Assembly (NCBI GenBank): GCA_963744065.1
Contig: CAVUSN010000017.1
Coordinates: 18,496-82,495, forward strand
DNA length: 64,000 nt
Direction: 5' to 3'
DNA from: an uncultured Actinomycetes bacterium
GTDB taxonomy: Bacteria > Actinomycetota > Thermoleophilia > Gaiellales > JAICJC01
Shown here: positions 3,805 through 52,594 of the stretch, piece by piece
Numbering within the stretch: the stretch's first letter is position 1
How the letters are laid out: each line of letters starts with the position of its first letter
The notes under the pieces: generated by a model
Databases searched by the model: none
Told to the model about the DNA's origin: nothing
Seen by the model: only the letters and a program-made list of their open reading frames with translations
Program-made: the position numbers and the translations under genes

Positions 3805-3865
3805 CCACGATTTGCGGTATCCACCCGCCCCGAGTCGCGTAAACGCCTGCCGATAAGATGCCCCG

Positions 3866-6444
3866 ATGCGCTCAGACGAGATCCGAAGCCGCTTCCTGGG
3901 CTATTTCACCGGCCGCGACCACCTGCGCCTGGACTCCGGCTCGCTGGTGCCGCCGGCCTGGGACACCAGCGTGCTCATCACCACCGCCGGCATGCAGCCG
4001 CTCAAGCAGTACTTCCTGGGCCTGGAGCCGCCGCCCCGGCCGCGCCTGACCAGCATTCAGAAGTGTTTTCGCACGGTGGACATCGACGAGGTGGGGCGGA
4101 CCGCCCGCCACCTGACCTTCTTCGAGATGCTGGGCAACTTCTCGATCGGCGACTACTTCAAGCCGCTGGCGGTGGCCTCGGCGTTCGAGCTCTCCGATCT
4201 CCGCCGACGGTTTCGGACTGGATCCGGACAAGATCTGGATCAGCGTCTACCGCGGCGACGAGCAGGTGCCGGCCGACGAGGAGGCGATCAGCCTGTGGCG
4301 CGAGATCGGCATCCCGGCCGAGCGGATCGTGCAGCTGGGCGGCGATAACTTCTGGCAGGCGGGCCCGGTGGGGCCGTGCGGGCCGTGTTCGGAGCTCTAC
4401 TACGACCGCGGCGAGCGGCTCGGCTGCGGCCGTCCGGAGTGCGCACCGGGCTGCGACTGCGACCGCTTCCTGGAGTTCTGGAATCTGGTCTTCATGCAGT
4501 ACAACATGCTGGACGGCGGCAGATTGGAGCCGCTGCCCCGGCCCAGCATCGACACCGGCTCGGGCGTCGAGCGGGTGGCCGCGCTGGTGCAGGGCACCGA
4601 CACGGTGTTCGAGACCGACATCTTCGCCGGCGTGATCGAGGCCGTGTGCGGCTGGAGCGGGGCGACCATGGGCGGCGACGATCCGGCCCAGGCCAAGTCG
4701 CTGCAAGGTGATCGCAGACCACGGCCGCGGCATGGCCTTCCTGGCCACCGACGGCGTCGAGCCCGACCGCGAGGGGCGCGGCTACGTGCTTCGCCGGATC
4801 ATCCGCCGGGCCGTCCTGCACGGCTCCCGGATCGGCCTGGATGAGCCATTCCTGGCCCGCCTGCACGGGAGGGTGGTGGAGCTGATGGGCGACGCCTATC
4901 CCGAGCTGCGGCGCGATGCCGACCGGGTGGCGGCGGTGCTCGAGGCCGAGGAGACGCGGTTTGCCGGCACGCTGGAGACCGGCGGCCGGATGCTGGACGA
5001 GATCCTGGCCCGGGGCGGCGACGTGTCGGCCGACGATGCCTTCCAGCTGCACGACACCTACGGCTTCCCGTTCGAGCTGACCGCCGAGATCGCCGCCGAG
5101 CGCGGCCGCTCGGTGGACGAGGCCGGCTTCGCCGAGCTGATGAACGAGCAGCGCCAGCGGGCGCGGGCCGCGGGCGCCTCTCGGCCGGCCGACGACGCCG
5201 GCGTTTTTGCCCGGGAGGCCGGCTTCACCAGCGAGTTCGTGGGCTACGAGTCGCTGGATGTGACCACCCAGGTGGGGGCGCTGCGGGAGGCCGGCGACGG
5301 CACGCTGTGGGTGAAGCTGCGCGAGTCGCCGTTCTACGCCCGCGGCGGCGGCCAGGTGGCCGACGCCGGCTGGATCGAGTCGGAGACCGCTCGTGCCGCC
5401 GTCGAGGATGTGATCCGGCTGGACGACGATCAACTGCTGGTCGTGCGCCCGGAGCGCGGAGAGCTGCACCAGGGTGATCGCGTGCGGGCCCGGGTGGACG
5501 CGGCCCGCCGCCGCCCGACCATGGCCAACCACACCGCCACCCATCTACTTCACCGCGCGCTGCGCGGGGTGCTGGGCGAGCACGTCACCCAGGCCGGCTC
5601 CTACGTCGGTCCGGACAAGCTGCGTTTCGACTTCCGCCACCCGGCGCCGCTGGAGCCCGAGCAGCTGGCCGCGGTCGAGCAGCGGGTGAACGACGACGTG
5701 GTCGCCAACCACCCCCTGCACACCTTCATCACCACCCAGGATCACGCCCGCCAGCTGGGGGCCATGATGCTCTTCGGGGAGAAGTACGGCGAGCACGTGA
5801 GGGTGGTCGAGGTGGACGGCATCTCCCGCGAGCTATGCGGCGGCACCCATGTGCGCTCGACGGCCGAGGTGGGCCCGTTCGTGGTGCTGCGCGAGACCAG
5901 TTCCTCGCAGGGCGTGCGCAGGATCGAGGCCATCTCCTCGGCGGTCGCCCTGGAGCACCTGCGAAGCCGAGCCCGGGATGCCGACCGGTTGGCTGCCGAG
6001 TTGGCCGAGCGCGACACCGAGCTGCGCCGGCTGCGTACCCGCGGCGGCGGCCTGGGGCCGGACTCGGCGAACGGCGAGGCCGAGCTTGTCGCCTCCGCGG
6101 TCGAGCTGGGCGGGGTGCAGGTGGTGGCGGCAGCCATCGAGGGCGTCGACTCCGAGTCGCTGCTTCGCACCTCCGACCGGCTGAAGGCGCGGCTGGGGCC
6201 GGCTGTGGTGGTGCTGGGCAGCTCGTCCGGCGGCAAGGTGCATCTGGTGGCCAGCGTCGATCAATCGGCCGTCGATCGCGGGCTGTCGGCCGTGGAGGTG
6301 ATCCGCCAGGTGGCGCCGATCGTGGGCGGCGGCGGCGGCGGCCGACCGACCATGGCCCGGGCCGGCGGCAGCGAACCGGCCGGGCTGGAACAGGCTGTGG
6401 CCCAGGCCAAGGCGTTGGTGCTGGAGAAGCTCGGCGCGGCATGA
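3866..6444 (+). CDS. alaS: alanine--tRNA ligase, interrupted by two frameshifts as assembled
   Basis: [39 protein letters not shown], then [31 protein letters not shown], then (SLR)[12 protein letters not shown].. to the C-terminal DHHA1-like end. The recognisable sequence moves between ORFs 3866.., 4266.. and 4708..6444 at ~4190-4200 and ~4704-4707. Confidence 0.9.
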
Positions 6445-40312: not shown

Positions 40313-41160
<848 letters not shown>

Positions 41161-41168
<8 letters not shown>

Positions 41169-43098
41169 CCTGCTGGTCGAGATCGGCTGCGAGGAACTGC
41201 CGGCGGCGGCCTGCCGGGAGGCGGCCAGGCAGCTGCCCGATCTGATTGAAAAGCAGCTCGCGGGGGTGCGGTTTCCGGCCGAGACGGTGCGGGTGCATGT
41301 GGCTCCGCGGCGGATCGCCTGGATCGCGCAGGGGCTGGCCGCGCAGCGCGCCACTGAGGAGTTCCGGCGCCGCGGCCCGCGCGCCGACGCCCCGGCCGCC
41401 GCCCGCGAGGGGTTTGCCCGCAAGGCCGGTGTGGCGCTCGACCAGTTGGTCGAGGAGGACGGCTTCCTGGTCGCCGTCGAGCCGGCCGGCAGCGTCGCGC
41501 TCGAGCAGCTGGTGCCGGATCTGGTCCGAAATGTGGCGGACGGCATCCGCTTCGCCAAGTCGATGCGCTGGGAGGGTGGCCGCTTTTCGCGGCCGGTGCG
41601 CTGGCTGGTGGTCAAGCTTGACGCCGACGTGGTGCCTGTGACCGCCTTCGGCCTGACCGCCGGCGGCCGCTCGCGCGGGCTGCGCACGGCCGGGAAGGTC
41701 GAGATCGGGTCTGCCTCGAGTTATCTGGAGGACGTCCGCTCGGTGCGGGTCATGGCCGATCGCGGCGAACGCGAGCAGACGATCCGGGCCGGACTGGATG
41801 CCGTCGGCGGCTGGGACGACCCGCTGCACAAGCTGAGTGAGGTGGTCGACCTGGTCGAGTGGCCGACCGTGCTCGAGGGCGGTTTCGACCAACGCTTCCT
41901 GGAGCTGCCCGAGCGGGTGGTGGTGACGGCCATGCAGTCGCACCAGCGCTACTTCCCGCTGCGGGCCGACGGGCGGCTGGCGCCGCGTTTCCTGTTCGTC
42001 GCCAACGGCGGCGACCGCGAGCTGGTCATTCGCGGGAACCAGGACGTGCTGGCCGGCCGCCTGGCCGACGCCGAGTTCGCCTTCCGGGCCGACCTGGAGC
42101 GCGGGATCGCGGCCATGGCGGCGGAGCTCGATCGGGTCACCTTTCTGGAGGGCGGCGGCTCGCTGGCCGAGAAGACTGCCCGCGTGCGCGGGTTGGCCCA
42201 GCGGCTGGCCGCCAGGCTGGGCCTGGACGCGGCTGTGCAGGCCGCCGCGGCCCGGGCCGCCGAGCTGGCCAAGGCCGACCTCGTCTCGAACCTGGTGGGC
42301 GAGTTCGCCGACCTGGAGGGGTTTGCCGGCTCGGTCTACGCGCAGCGCGCGGGCGAGGACGCGGCGGTTGTGGAAGCGATCGCCGAGCACCACCTGCCGT
42401 ACGGCTTCGCCGGCCCGCAGCCGGCGTCCGAGGCGGCCGCCGTCGTGTCGGTGGCCGACAAGGCCGACACTCTGGCCACCGCCTTCGGGCTGGGCCTGGA
42501 GCCGACCGGCAGCCGTGACCCGTTCGGGCTGCGGCGGGCCGCCTCCGGGCTGGTGGCGGTGGTGCTGGAGCGGGGCTGGGATGTGGGCACCGCCGAGCTG
42601 GTGGGCGAGGGGGCGGTGGGCTTCGTACTCGACCGGGTGGAGGCGCTGCTGGCCGAGCAGGGGGTGAGCGTTGAGGAGCTGCGGGCGGCGCGCGGGGCCG
42701 GGCTGGCCGAGCCGGTGGCCGTGGCTGGGCTGGCCCGAGCCCTGCACGAGGCCGCCGGTCCCGCGCGCGACGCCCTGCGCGACGCCTACGGCCGCTGCCG
42801 GCGGATCGCCGCCGACGCGGACGCCTCCGACCTGGATCCGGCGGCGCTCGAGGAGCCGGCCGAGCTGGCGCTGGCCGACGCGGTGGCGGCCCTCGAGCAG
42901 CGCTTCGACGAGCTGGCCGGAGACCCGGCCGGCATGCTGGCGGCGGCCGCCGGACTGGTGGATCCGATCACGGCCTACTTCGACCAGGTGCTGGTGATGG
43001 CGCCCGATCCGGCCGTGCGCCGAAACCGGCTGGCGCTGGCCGCTGGCGCGGCCGCCTGTCTGCGCCGGGTCGGCGACCTGGATCAGCTCCCCGGCTAG
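41161..43098 (+). CDS. glyS: glycine--tRNA ligase beta subunit
   Basis: [15 protein letters not shown].. at ATG 41161 overlaps the glyQ end. ..TPRR.A....MRW......F.RP.RW..., ..[10 protein letters not shown].. and ..AIAEHY.P.. follow. It is a single uninterrupted frame within ORF 40456..43098. Confidence 0.9.
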
Positions 43099-43103
43099 CG
43101 ACA

Positions 43104-43135
43104 GGCCGGTGCCACCCAGGTGCCTGGCACCGGCC
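43104..43135 (+). terminator. 32-nt palindromic hairpin after glyS (copy 1 of a shared palindrome)
   Basis: ggccggtgccacccaggtgcctggcaccggcc has an 11-bp outer stem. It differs at 3 central positions from the copy at 47591-47622 and starts 5 nt after the glyS stop. Confidence 0.55.
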
Positions 43136-43156
43136 GTGATCCTCTAGGATCAGGCC

Positions 43157-43993
43157 GTGCCCGACGTGCTCGAGATCCACATCGTCTCCGACTCCACGGG
43201 CGACACCGCGGCCCGGGTGGCCCGCGCCGCGACCCACCAGTTCGCGGACGTTGAGATCGAGCTCATCCGGCACGCCCGCATCCAGAGCCGCGAGCAGCTC
43301 GACCGCGCGCTGGAGGACGCCGAGGGCAAGCTGGCGGCGATCTTCTACACGCTGGTCGACGGGGGTCTGCGGGAGGCGATCGTGGAGATCGGCCAAGCCC
43401 GCCGGCTGGTGCTGCTGGACGTGCTCAGCCCGGCGCTCTCGGCCATCAGCGCGGCATCCGGCCGCCAGGCCACCATGCTTCCCGGCCGCACCGCCCCGCT
43501 GGACGCGCAGTACTTCCGCCGCATCGCCGCCATCGAGTTCGCGGTCAAGCACGACGACGGCCGCGGCCCGCACGAGCTGGCGCATGCCGACGTCGTGCTG
43601 GTGGGGGTGTCGCGCACCTCCAAGACCCCCACCTCGATGCACCTCGGCTACCTGGGCTACATGGCCGCCAACGTGCCCATCGTGCGCGGCATCGACCCGC
43701 CGCCGGCGCTCTTCTCGGTGGAGCCGTGGAAGGTGGTGGGCCTGACCATCGACCCCCAGCGGCTGGCCGAGATCCGCCGCCGCCGGGTGCGCGCGCTGGC
43801 CGCCGGCGCCAATGCCCGCTACGCCGATCTGACCGAGATCTACGAGGAGCTGGAGCTTGCCGGCGTCCTGCACAAGCGGCTCGGCTGCCCAGTGATCGAC
43901 GTCACCGGCCTGGCCATCGAGGAGGCCGCAGCCCGCGTGGCCGAACTGGTGGACGAGCGCCGGCGGGCCGCGCTGGAAGGCGTCACGGCCTGA
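43157..43993 (+). CDS. pyruvate,phosphate dikinase / PEP synthase regulatory protein (PDRP, DUF299)
   Basis: ..IHIVSDSTGDTA..VVLVGVSRTSKTPTSMHL...G...ANVP.V are the P-loop-like motifs of bifunctional PDRP kinases. It is immediately upstream of ppdK. GTG start. Confidence 0.85.
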   Translation: MPDVLEIHIVSDSTGDTAARVARAATHQFADVEIELIRHARIQSREQLDRALEDAEGKLAAIFYTLVDGGLREAIVEIGQARRLVLLDVLSPALSAISAASGRQATMLPGRTAPLDAQYFRRIAAIEFAVKHDDGRGPHELAHADVVLVGVSRTSKTPTSMHLGYLGYMAANVPIVRGIDPPPALFSVEPWKVVGLTIDPQRLAEIRRRRVRALAAGANARYADLTEIYEELELAGVLHKRLGCPVIDVTGLAIEEAAARVAELVDERRRAALEGVTA

Positions 43994-43998
43994 CAGGA

Positions 43999-44257
43999 AG
44001 ATGATTGATCGGTAACCCCTGCAGTGTCCTGGGCGGCGAGAACCGAGCTTGCGAAGGACGCAGGGAGCGATGCGGGCTGGTGGCCCGGGCGCGACCGAGG
44101 ACGCAGGCGCAAGGCTTCGCCTTGCGCCGATCGGGAGCGATCCGCTATCCAGCGGATCGCGGACGGGGCGATGGTTCGCAGCCGCAGCCCCGCCGCACTA
44201 CGCCGTGCGTACGACGGTCGTACGGCCAGGTGCGCTGGGGTTACCGATCAATCATCT
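43999..44257 (+). other. 259-bp hairpin-dense element closed by a perfect 21-bp inverted repeat (candidate structured RNA or MITE-like insert)
   Basis: agatgattgatcggtaacccc (43999-44019) is the exact reverse complement of ggggttaccgatcaatcatct (44237-44257). There are internal perfect hairpins at 44106-44128 (10 bp, loop ttc) and 44137-44160 (10 bp, loop atcc), and a palindrome at 44208-44224. Confidence 0.8.
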
Positions 44258-44318
44258 CAACGTCCGGTTTCGACGGTTTCGGGTGGCGCGCCGGGCGGGC
44301 GGCAGTAGAGTGCCGGCT

Positions 44319-46863
44319 GTGCCGGAGTATGTGTACGAGTTCGCTCGCGGTGATCGTGGGATGCGCGAGCTGCTGGGAGGCAAGGGCGCCAATCTGGCCG
44401 AGATGACGGCCATCGGGCTGCCCGTCCCAGACGGCTTCACGATCACCACCCACGCCTGCATGGAGTTTCTGCGGGGCGGCGAACGCTGGCCCGACGGCAT
44501 GCGCGAGCAGGTGGACACGGCGCTCACCGAGCTGGAGGCCCGGGTGGGCAAGAAGTTCGGCGGCGGAGACGACCCGCTGCTCCTGTCGGTGCGTTCGGGC
44601 TCGCCGGTGTCGATGCCCGGCATGATGGACACGATCCTGAACCTGGGTCTGAACGACACCGCCGTCGCCAGGCTAGCCGACGCCACCGGCGACCGCCGGT
44701 TCGCACTCGACTCCTACCGCAGGTTGATCGCCATGTTCGGCAACGTGGTGGCGGGCGCGCACGCCAGCCGCTTCGAGGACAGGCTGACCCGGCTCAAACA
44801 CGCTCGCGGGGCCGAGAGCGACGTCGACCTGGGCGCCGACGACCTGGACGAGCTGGTGACGCAGTTCAAGGACGTCTACGAACGCGACACCGGCGAGCCC
44901 TTTCCGCAGGATCCGCGGGCCCAGCTGACGCGCGCCATCGAGGCCGTGTTCCGCTCCTGGAACACGCCGCGCGCGATCGCCTATCGACGCCGTGAGCAGC
45001 TCTCCGACGACATGGGCACGGCCGTCAACGTGCAGCAGATGGTGTTCGGCAACGTGGGCGAGAACTCCGGCACCGGTGTTGCCTTCACCCGCAACCCGTC
45101 CACCGGGGCGCCCGGCCCGTACGGCGAGTTCCTGGTCAAGGCGCAGGGCGAGGACGTGGTCTCGGGCGTGCGCACGGCGCCCCCGCTGACCGAGCTGGAG
45201 CGGCTGCACCCCGAAGCCTTCAAGCAGCTGGTCGGAGTGATGGACCAGCTGGAGCGCCACTACGGCGACATGCAGGACGTCGAGTTCACGGTCGAGCGCG
45301 GCCACATGTACATGCTGCAGACGCGCAGCGGCAAGCGCGACCCGCGGGCCGCCCTGCGGATCGCTCTGGATCTGGTGGACGAGGGAGTGACCGACCGCAG
45401 CAGCGCGCTGCGGCACGTGGACGCGCAAGCAGCTGGAGAACGTGCTGCGGCCGACCGTCAGCCCGCGTGACCACCATCCGGTGATCGCAACCGGCCTGCC
45501 GGCCTGCGCCGGCGCAGCGGTGGGTGTGGCCGTGTTCGACTCCGCGTCGGCGCAGGAGCGCGCTGAGGCGGGCGAGCAGGTGATCCTGATCCGGGCCGAG
45601 ACGTCAGCCGAGGACGTGCCCGGGATGGCCCGCTCGGCCGGCGTGGTCACCTCTCGCGGCGGCATGACCTCGCACGCCGCGGTGGTGGTGCGCGGCTGGG
45701 GCACGCCGTGCGTGGTGGGGGCCGAGTCGCTGCACATCGACGCCGCCACCCGCGAGGCCCGCTCGAACGGCCATGTCGTGCACGAGGGCGACACCGTGAC
45801 CGTGTCGGTGACCGACGAGGTGGGCCGCGTGATCCTGGGCGCGGCCGAGCTGGTGCCGCCGCCGGCCGAGACGCTGGAGGGCCTGCGCACGATCACCGGC
45901 TGGGCCGACGAGGTGCGCACGCTGGGCGTGCGCGCCAACGCCGACACGCCGGCCGACGCCGCCCATGCCCGCGAGCTGGGCGCGGAGGGCATCGGCCTGT
46001 GCCGCACTGAGCACATGTTCTTCTCCGACCAGTGGCTGCCGGCCGTGCGGCGGATGATCATGGCCCACAGCGTGGAGGAGCGGCAGGTCGCCCTGGACGA
46101 GCTGCTGCCGCCCCACCAGGCCGACTTCGAGGGCATCCTGGAGGTCATGCACGGGCTGCCGGTGACGATCCGCCTGCTCGACCCGCCGCTGCACGAGTTC
46201 GTGCCCGACGTCAAGGAGCTGCACGAGGTGAACCCGATGCTGGGCACGCGCGGCTGCCGGCTGGGAGTGGTGCACCCGGAGATCTACGAGATGCAGGTGC
46301 GGGCGATCGTTCGCGCCGCCAAGGCCAAGCAGCACACCGGCGTGGAGATCATGCACCCGCTGGTCGGCTTCGCCAGCGAGCTGCGGCGGCTGCGCGAGCT
46401 GACCGAGCGGGTGATCGCAGAGGAGGACGGCGGCTCGCTGGGCATCCACATCGGCACCATGATCGAGGTGCCGCGGGCGGCGCTGACGGCCGACGAGATC
46501 GCCGTCTACGCGGAGTTCTGCAGCTTCGGCACCAACGACCTGACTCAGATGACGCTGGCATTCAGCCGCGACGACGCCGAGAACGGCTTCCTGCCGTACT
46601 ACCTGGACGCGCGCCTGCTGCCGGTCAGCCCGTTCGAGACGCTCGACCAGACCGGCGTCGGCCAGCTGGTCGAGATGGCGGTCGAACGGGCGCGCAAGGC
46701 TCGGCCCGGCATCAAGCTGGGCGTGTGCGGGGAGCATGGCGGCGACCCCAACTCGATCGGGTTCTTCCACCGCGTGGGGCTTGACTACGTCTCCTGCTCG
46801 CCGAATCGGGTGCCAACCGCACGGTTGGCGGCCGCCCAGGCTGTGCTGGAGAGCGGCGCTTGA
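44319..46863 (+). CDS. ppdK: pyruvate, phosphate dikinase (one frameshift ~45425-45440)
   Basis: (V)PEYVYEFARGDRGMRELLGGKGANLAEM..GLPVPDGFTI..MPGMMDTILNLGLND..FTVERGHMYMLQTRSGKR, then ..LRPTVSP...IATGLPA..GAA.G...F..GGMTSHAAVVVRGWG.PCV.G..GLCRTEHMF..FSFGTNDLTQ..GVCGEHGGDP. The sequence passes from ORF 44049..45470 to ORF 45442..46863. Confidence 0.9.
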
Positions 46864-47588: not shown

Positions 47589-47590
47589 GA

Positions 47591-47622
47591 GGCCGGTGCC
47601 AGGCACGTGCCTGGCACCGGCC
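47591..47622 (+). terminator. 32-nt perfect palindrome after comB (copy 2 of the shared palindrome)
   Basis: ggccggtgccaggcac|gtgcctggcaccggcc has 16-nt perfectly complementary arms. It starts 2 nt after the stop codon. Confidence 0.6.
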
Positions 47623-47673
47623 TAGCCGGTTGGCGGCTCTCAATCCTTTCCGGGTAGGGTCACCTGGGCCATC

Positions 47674-52531: not shown

Positions 52532-52594
52532 GGGGTCGGGTGCCCTTGACCCGACCCCAGAAATGCTGCGGGCCCCGCCACGAACGGGGCCCGC
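52532..52594 (-). terminator. two tandem GC-rich hairpins downstream of the 52624..53061 gene
   Basis: ggggtcgggt/acccgacccc (52532-52558, 10-bp stem, 7-nt loop) and gcgggccccg/cggggcccgc (52568-52594, 10-bp stem, 7-nt loop). They begin 30 nt past the stop of the minus-strand gene. Confidence 0.6.

Follow-up and report, generated by a model that had tools for sequence, protein, structure and literature searches.

The 259-bp element between the PDRP gene and ppdK very probably belongs to an undescribed family of non-autonomous DNA transposons (MITEs) in high-GC soil Actinomycetota. This family is dispersed over multiple loci and has conserved TIRs, a variable modular interior, and TA/CTAG junctions, and its members are most likely of the IS630 type. 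The kind of element is already known and only the family was previously undescribed, which makes this a fairly ordinary find. What is new is a MITE family of poorly studied uncultured soil Actinomycetota (Gaiellales-like), described here by its TIR, its target signature, and its modular interior. A false lead has also been removed, as the element is not a novel riboswitch or sRNA serving the PDRP/PPDK switch. Elements of this kind break assemblies, give rise to differences between strains next to genes of central metabolism, and can lead pipelines for RNA-motif discovery astray; with the family profile, they could be annotated or masked.

Structure and position of the element

The window, which is the whole 64-kb stretch of DNA that was analyzed, contains the element within the following features:

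43157..43993, + strand: PDRP / PpsR kinase-phosphotransferase gene, upstream (PF03618)
43994..44260, no strand: inserted segment, 267 bp = CAGGA + element + CAA (BLAST breakpoints and alignment with contig L001)
43999..44257, no strand: MITE copy, TIR to TIR (inverted repeat; the nhmmer family profile matches 44000-44256, E = 1e-42)
43999..44019, + strand: left TIR, AGATGATTGATCGGTAACCCC, 1 position off the family consensus (T to C)
within 44026..44099, + strand: left interior blocks kept in the family, GTCCTGGGCGGC (44026-44037) and GAACCGAGC (44040-44048), and further left blocks AAGGACGCAGGGAG (44054-44067) and GGGCGCGACCGAG (44087-44099) (alignment with contig L011)
44106..44160, no strand: hairpin-doublet module, HP1 44106-44128 (10 bp, loop 3) and HP2 44137-44160 (10 bp, loop 4); 0-3 copies among members
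44179..44191, + strand: right interior block kept in the family, CAGCCGCAGCCCC (alignment with L011)
44208..44224, no strand: palindrome CGTACGAC-G-GTCGTACG, 8-bp arms; copy-specific, absent from the other members examined
44237..44257, - strand: right TIR, exact reverse complement of the left (repeat search and family arms)
44306..44311, + strand: TAGAGT, -10-like box (alignment of six spacers)
44319..46863, + strand: ppdK gene, downstream, GTG start; two ORFs, split by an extra A at 45427 relative to L001

The architecture given in the original prediction was reproduced throughout. The 21-bp inverted repeat is perfect, its arms are AT-richer (48% GC, counted from the sequence) than the surroundings (approximately 70-75%), and the closing stem extends inward through CCTGG/CCAGG. 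Both interior hairpins are perfect, the palindrome is present, and the direct repeat AGGACGCAGG occurs at 44055 and 44098. The PDRP stop codon (43991-43993) is followed 6 nt later by the element, which leaves 61 nt to the GTG of ppdK (44319). The window copy has no target-site duplication, as had been noted earlier, its flanks being gaA on the left and Tca on the right. Counted with the A/T that prolongs the repeat, the copy measures 259 bp; when the family TIR is taken as its limit, it measures 257 bp (44000-44256).

With up to three mismatches allowed, the 64-kb window contains no further match to the arm AGATGATTGATCGGTAACCCC; among 100 shuffles, none matched. When compared with shuffled sequences, the 259-nt element folds very stably (-168 kcal/mol) on either strand, with z = -10.1 for the + strand and z = -8.2 for the - strand. 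The small size and lack of coding capacity expected of a MITE were both observed: members measure 129-370 bp, and a six-frame pseudo-protein search with this copy, aimed at copies under spurious ORFs, gave nothing at E <= 10. Named relatives of the PDRP protein of the window carry the label Gaiellales.

Some additional features of the window concern its annotation. The ppdK frame is open upstream through most of the MITE, from a TTG at 44049 (44049-44318), and a gene caller could wrongly lengthen ppdK by approximately 90 codons into the MITE. Other long perfect hairpins in the window, including a 15-bp stem at 47590-47623, a pair of 10-bp stems at 52532-52594, and a 14-bp stem at 270-304, are not related in sequence to the MITE module.

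Empty sites in the PDRP-ppdK spacer of relatives

The closest relative found is a 2.29-Mb ENA contig (L001, from ERZ25039458) that encodes an identical PDRP protein and is 99.5-99.7% identical to the window across 6.8 kb. The alignment of the two breaks exactly at window positions 43993/43994 and 44260/44261, where L001 has GCATC (5 bp) in place of the 267 bp. At 90% DNA identity, L002 reads TGA-GC-CGTCC, with only GC at the site and the element absent, and the spacer measures 35 nt in L003-L006 (89% PDRP identity) and 14 nt in L007 (83% PDRP identity). In L008 (82% PDRP identity), the spacer holds 272 nt of another, internally duplicated hairpin-rich sequence that is not related to the element. 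Because L001, L002, L003-L006, and L007 all lack the element, the empty spacer is the ancestral state, and the element reached this spacer within approximately 0.4% sequence divergence as a recent, lineage-specific insertion. Insertion polymorphism with an empty site, here in L001 and L002, is a property expected of MITEs. The conservation in relatives' PDRP-ppdK spacers that the original prediction had proposed to check, and that would be expected of a riboswitch, was not observed: the element is absent from L001, L002, L003-L006, and L007, and L008 has its other insert.

Two further possibilities were considered. The GCATC of L001 as an excision footprint of the element is unsupported, as it contains no TA and the outgroup L002 has GC, and an assembly artefact as the source of the element was rejected on the ground that homologous elements are seen in independent datasets.

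Several observations were made on the same locus in these contigs. The L008 insert (3838-4109; GCA_038230835.1, JBBRMM010000010.1) comprises 272 bp in two direct repeats of approximately 130 bp, which contain many hairpins, among them GGGGTCTGACCCC and GGGTGGCCACCC, and a second assembly (L009) ends inside an insert of this type. The PDRP-ppdK spacer seems to be a recurrent landing place of structured repeats (the window element and the L008 insert). In L002 (1378-2353), ppdK is cut off after approximately 19 codons and followed by different DNA with an HTH_3 gene and another ORF on the opposite strand, for which an insertion, a rearrangement, or a chimeric contig is possible. In the group at 89% PDRP identity (L003 3833-3842), the stop codon of PDRP is part of gcCTAGATGcg, and CTAG plus ATG are the same 7 nt as the canonical left MITE junction (CTA/GATG, the slash marking the element boundary here and below); this match is probably a coincidence, but could be a preferred target or a remnant. 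Compared with L001, the window also has two single-base extras: the A at 45427 splits ppdK into ORFs 44319-45470 and 45442-46863, and a C at 41136 fuses the 3′ end of glyQ to glyS in an 880-aa ORF (40456-43098). Two such insertions inside 7 kb, both affecting conserved genes, suggest errors of the long-read assembly and not pseudogenes.

Distribution of the family

The exact 20-mer TIR of the window copy gave 0 matches in species-representative genomes or JGI metagenomes, because the window copy has CCCC where the family has CTCC. A two-arm pattern on the 11-nt arm core alone, scanned over species-representative genomes, recovered L011, which by the strict two-arm pattern is the one true homologue in 185,579 such genomes; the family is rare in reference data. 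L011 is from the uncultured Actinomycetes MAG MFD05513.bin.2.233 and carries a homologue of approximately 265 bp in the opposite orientation, located between an uncharacterised ORF and a short-chain dehydrogenase gene. A broader pattern, fitted to all four arms then known, returned 20 metagenome contigs, and 18 of these 20 soil-metagenome contigs are homologous to the element by BLAST and the nhmmer family profile.

Multiple copies at unrelated loci, as expected of a MITE, were thereby found in approximately 19 distinct junction contexts from one MAG and soil metagenomes, several of the metagenome contigs sharing one metagenome of origin. Copies occur in both orientations at loci not related to PDRP-ppdK. 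Two copies are present on one contig in L026 and again in L020, and the 64-kb window holds one copy by the nhmmer profile. Complete copies measure 129, approximately 200 (the "core" form), 257-265, 323, or 370 bp; their interiors are 70-85% identical among members, and their TIRs are identical or nearly so. Seven contigs stop inside the element, which is expected because repeats break short-read assemblies. Among the readings offered by the original prediction, that of a MITE-like insertion is therefore the one that has held, given the empty site in a 99.5%-identical strain and in distant relatives and the approximately 19 junction contexts elsewhere with the same TIR.

L012, L015, L025, and L027 were examined as candidate homologues and read as chance pattern matches. 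BLASTN of the window copy and of a consensus-like copy against plasmids and phages gave chance matches only, and scans of viral contigs gave one chance match (L015) and otherwise nothing. A literature search with the TIR string returned only papers on other subjects, apparently through chance sequence matches.

The two copies of L020 (6847-7046 and 7987-8266) lie approximately 1 kb apart and bracket a small uncharacterised gene and a GNAT acetyltransferase gene; the same locus is found in L024 and L033. The second L020 copy represents a subfamily with arms GATGATTGATTCC... in place of GATGATTGATCGGTAAC.... Outside the Actinomycetota, a Balneolaceae MAG (GEM2.Bin42) has a repeat of approximately 330 bp (L013 2611-2938 and L014 143-479; 84% identical between contigs), whose arm GACGATTGATCGGTAACTCA agrees with the TIR consensus of the actinobacterial MITE in 18 positions out of 20. 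This repeat belongs to another phylum and has an AT-rich interior not related to that of the MITE; the likeness of the arms could be a coincidence or reflect a related transposase recognition site.

Terminal repeats and junction signature

The family TIR consensus is GATG(A/G)TTGATCGGTAACTCC. This conserved 20-mer, changed at 0-2 positions per arm, marks the ends of the copies in L011 and at 17 metagenome loci, as would be expected of a MITE. Within one element, the two arms are not always complementary (L016 and L032, G versus A; L026, A opposite A). A protein-binding site that tolerates changes accounts for these mismatches better than a selected helix does. The TIRs of approximately 20 bp would be recognized by a DDE transposase provided in trans, and the long closing stem of the element would be a by-product of the TIRs and not a selected RNA helix.

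Outside the window, TA adjoins GATG/CATC at 17 of 26 junctions (TA background 1% of dinucleotides, p ~1e-28), and 16 of the 17 TA junctions have C (left) or G (right) outside the TA, i.e., C-TA/element/TA-G. TA is present on both sides of the element in L026, L029, and L032. Judged from its sequence, this signature corresponds to a putative TA duplication in CTAG, which is typical of IS630/Tc1-mariner elements. It was reported that these elements have a TA target that is duplicated upon insertion (PMC2170065), and the same paper refers to Tenzen & Ohtsubo 1991 for a preference of IS630 for CTAG. In the proposed mechanism, insertion at the TA within CTAG would duplicate TA in the style of IS630/Tc1-mariner.

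Insertion at TA is seen across the family, and the window copy itself lacks the TA signature: its flanks are AA and TC, and the empty site contains no TA. Compared with empty sites, 2-5 target bases are gone and 8 bases (CAGGA and CAA) have been gained. The window copy may have arrived in an irregular way, for example by capture at a break, or else its junctions may have been remodelled later. Of 28 junctions in the family, 25 have an A directly adjoining GATG and only 17 have T as the outer base, which is a poor fit to a pure TA duplication and suggests that the inner flanking A/T belongs to the TIR, as it does in the 21-bp arm of the window. Moreover, CTAG is palindromic, and a 4-bp CTAG duplication by an IS5-family parent would therefore give an identical canonical junction.

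IS630 elements and the search for a parent transposon

A complete IS630-family insertion sequence of 1.17 kb is present in L026 (111-1281), with TIR GTGTCCTGTCTCTGAGG and TA on both sides; its transposase ORF (143-1282) encodes 379 aa and scores 273.6 bits on NF033545, "IS630 family transposase" (cutoff 100). Its position is precisely where two tandem MITE copies meet, and the CTAG remade at MITE junctions may accordingly be a hot target itself. The L026 transposase has thousands of relatives, and the one long contig examined for these (L036) carries the same foreign TIR, in the arrangement C-TA/GTGTCC...GGACAC/TA-G, directly after a gene called ribosomal protein L28 (PF00830). The IS630 elements studied are thus two, both in soil Actinomycetota contigs, L026 having two MITE copies and L036 no MITE. 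The TIRs of both (GTGTCCTG..., also GTGTCCTGTC...) are unlike the MITE TIR, and the elements of L026 and L036 are for this reason not the cognate partner. A search for a cognate autonomous element with TIR GATGRTTGATCGGTAAC gave none in the window, fetched loci, plasmids, phages, or viral contigs, and no transposase was detected among ORFs beside the solo or partial arms in L018, L025, and L027.

The ends of IS5/IS427 group elements start with GA or GG, and duplications of 2-4 bp such as CTAG or TA are made by this group. Derivation from, or mobilization by, an IS5-family transposase (IS5 or IS427 group) instead of an IS630 one is rather unlikely, although the MITE ends do start with GA (GATG...), as is typical of IS5/IS427, CTAG/ATG..CAT/CTAG is formally identical to C-TA/GATG..CATC/TA-G, and the IS630 elements found have TIRs not related to that of the MITE. 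Against such a parent, the G beside ATG is invariant even at non-canonical junctions, which fits a G within the element and not within the target, and IS630 elements with an identical junction signature exist in two soil Actinomycetota contigs, in L026 beside two MITE copies. In addition, no IS5-type transposase was noticed at any locus. An IS630-type origin of the MITE is for us the most likely one.

The hairpin-doublet module and placement at gene ends

The length variation of the family is due to 0-3 copies of a module of approximately 62-65 nt composed of two adjacent perfect hairpins, HP1 containing CAAG...CTTG and HP2 containing TC(C/T)GC...GC(G/A)GA. The module follows GACCGAG in the window, L011, L026, and L029, and GTCC in L022 and the second L020 element. 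Inside the MITE that carries it, the module is acquired, lost, and amplified, with 0-3 copies at these two positions. The window module is 92% identical to that in L029. The stems vary between copies yet stay perfectly paired through compensatory changes: among six aligned modules, 99.2% of cells are paired versus 32-42% with the partners slid, and 3 pairs are changed on both sides, two of the six rows being one locus from different samples, which leaves the independent support modest. Every hairpin doublet in 174 kb of fetched sequence sits inside a MITE copy. Palindromes kept by compensatory change inside a MITE are a small but real puzzle, and possible roles of the module include a terminator, an RNA-stability hairpin, or a single-stranded DNA structure. 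It is rather improbable, if worth considering, that the module of approximately 62-65 nt is itself a selected semi-autonomous unit (a terminator/insulator, an RNA-stability cassette, or a nested mobile element), which the MITE would spread to gene 3′ ends, altering the expression of neighbours such as ppdK.

With regard to gene ends, the element begins directly after the TGA of rpsR in L031 and overlaps the stop codons of both convergent neighbours in L011; together with the window copy and the IS630 element of L036, this gives four cases at or just after a stop codon, three of which are MITE copies. TA and CTAG are scarce in DNA of approximately 72% GC and would be concentrated largely in stop codons, and it is because of this presumed concentration that the placement can be explained with no function invoked.

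Correia and REP elements are precedents for effects of the terminator or RNA-stability type. In the same way, a MITE copy or its module may have been exapted as a terminator, insulator, or 3′ RNA stabiliser of the PDRP transcript, uncoupling the expression of PDRP from that of ppdK in this strain, an extension that is compatible with the main explanation and to which we give a small chance. It would be in keeping with these precedents, with hairpin stems that stay perfect via compensatory changes, and with the finding that no fewer than three MITE copies lie at the 3′ end of a gene or immediately downstream of it. However, no U-tract follows the hairpins and the terminator scan was empty, the concentration of TA/CTAG at stop codons explains the 3′-end placement equally well, and presence/absence between near-identical strains argues against a required function.

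The lack of a duplication and the filler bases at both junctions of the window copy, as well as an interior made of palindromic units, would also agree with a REP/REPIN-like element moved by a RAYT (HUH) transposase, or with a one-off capture of DNA in break repair. Such an origin is very unlikely in view of the long conserved TIRs and strong TA/CTAG junction signature of the family, the fact that doublets never occurred outside MITE copies, as stand-alone units would, in 174 kb, and the lack of a conserved GTAG-type REP head on inspection of the listed copies.

A probable ppdK promoter and the RNA-based readings

TAGAGT is conserved in the window, L001, L002, L003, and L008, 7 nt before the ppdK start (8 nt in L008), and lies 49 nt downstream of the element. 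In Actinobacteria, the -10 consensus is TANNNT and leaderless mRNAs are frequent. From the conservation of the box and this consensus, ppdK probably has its own leaderless promoter (TAGAGT) downstream of the element, leaving the MITE outside the ppdK mRNA. Transcription of ppdK would still be driven by the TAGAGT promoter, and the element would mainly lengthen the 3′ region of PDRP and displace any upstream control sequence. Simple sigma-70 and terminator scans found no promoter or terminator. The original prediction had recognized no RNA family in the element, and the Rfam 15 E-value scan of 43000-45000 that it had called for agrees, with nothing inside the element at E <= 10, 6S and Ms1 included.

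The original prediction had also listed a structured regulatory leader or riboswitch of ppdK; such a cis-acting element, transcribed together with PDRP and ppdK, is extremely unlikely. The predicted folds are very stable, the site lies between two functionally linked genes, and the hairpins show compensatory changes; nevertheless, neither the 99.5%-identical strain nor any other relative examined has the element in this spacer, its homologues are at unrelated loci in both orientations, it has no Rfam match, and the reverse strand folds about as strongly. Co-transcription as a ppdK leader is doubtful in itself, as the conserved TAGAGT near the ppdK start is located between that start and the element. 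A stable sRNA with a long closing stem (6S/Ms1-like) had also been suggested at the outset. As a stand-alone gene that is mobile by chance, such an sRNA would agree with the long closing helix and the multi-branched interior of the element, but it has next to no probability, given that neither 6S nor Ms1 nor any other Rfam family matches, the element is absent from orthologous spacers, its length varies from 129 to 370 nt by module gain and loss, no promoter or terminator consensus was detected, and the arms of one element can differ and do not always co-vary (L016, L032, and L026, the last with A opposite A).

Comparison with known systems

The closest parallels to the MITE are Correia elements (Neisseria) and RUP (Streptococcus pneumoniae, IS630-Spn1), which, like the element, are short, non-coding sequences with TIRs of approximately 20-26 bp and TA flanks, located in intergenic regions beside genes, often co-transcribed, with a long hairpin formed by the TIRs and a presence that varies by strain. 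No sequence similarity exists between them and the element, which is hosted by high-GC soil Actinomycetota, has a greater length (129-370 bp) and an interior of modular hairpin doublets, and lacks the TA duplication in the window copy. IS630 and ISY100 (PMC2170065) resemble the MITE family in having a TA target, a preference for CTAG, and a TA duplication, the last being putative in the MITE; unlike IS630, the MITE encodes no transposase, and its TIR (GATGATTGATCGGTAAC...) differs from that of the IS630 found (GTGTCCTGTC...).

BOX elements (Streptococcus pneumoniae) share with the element a variable number of inner hairpin modules between conserved ends and very stable predicted folds, but have no defined transposase-type TIRs or TA duplication, and their sequences and hosts are unrelated. 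REP/BIME and RAYT-mobilised REPIN sequences also combine paired GC-rich palindromes, location at gene 3′ ends, and compensatory upkeep of stems; REPs, however, lack enclosing long TIRs and TA duplication, whereas the doublets of the present element occur only inside the MITE.
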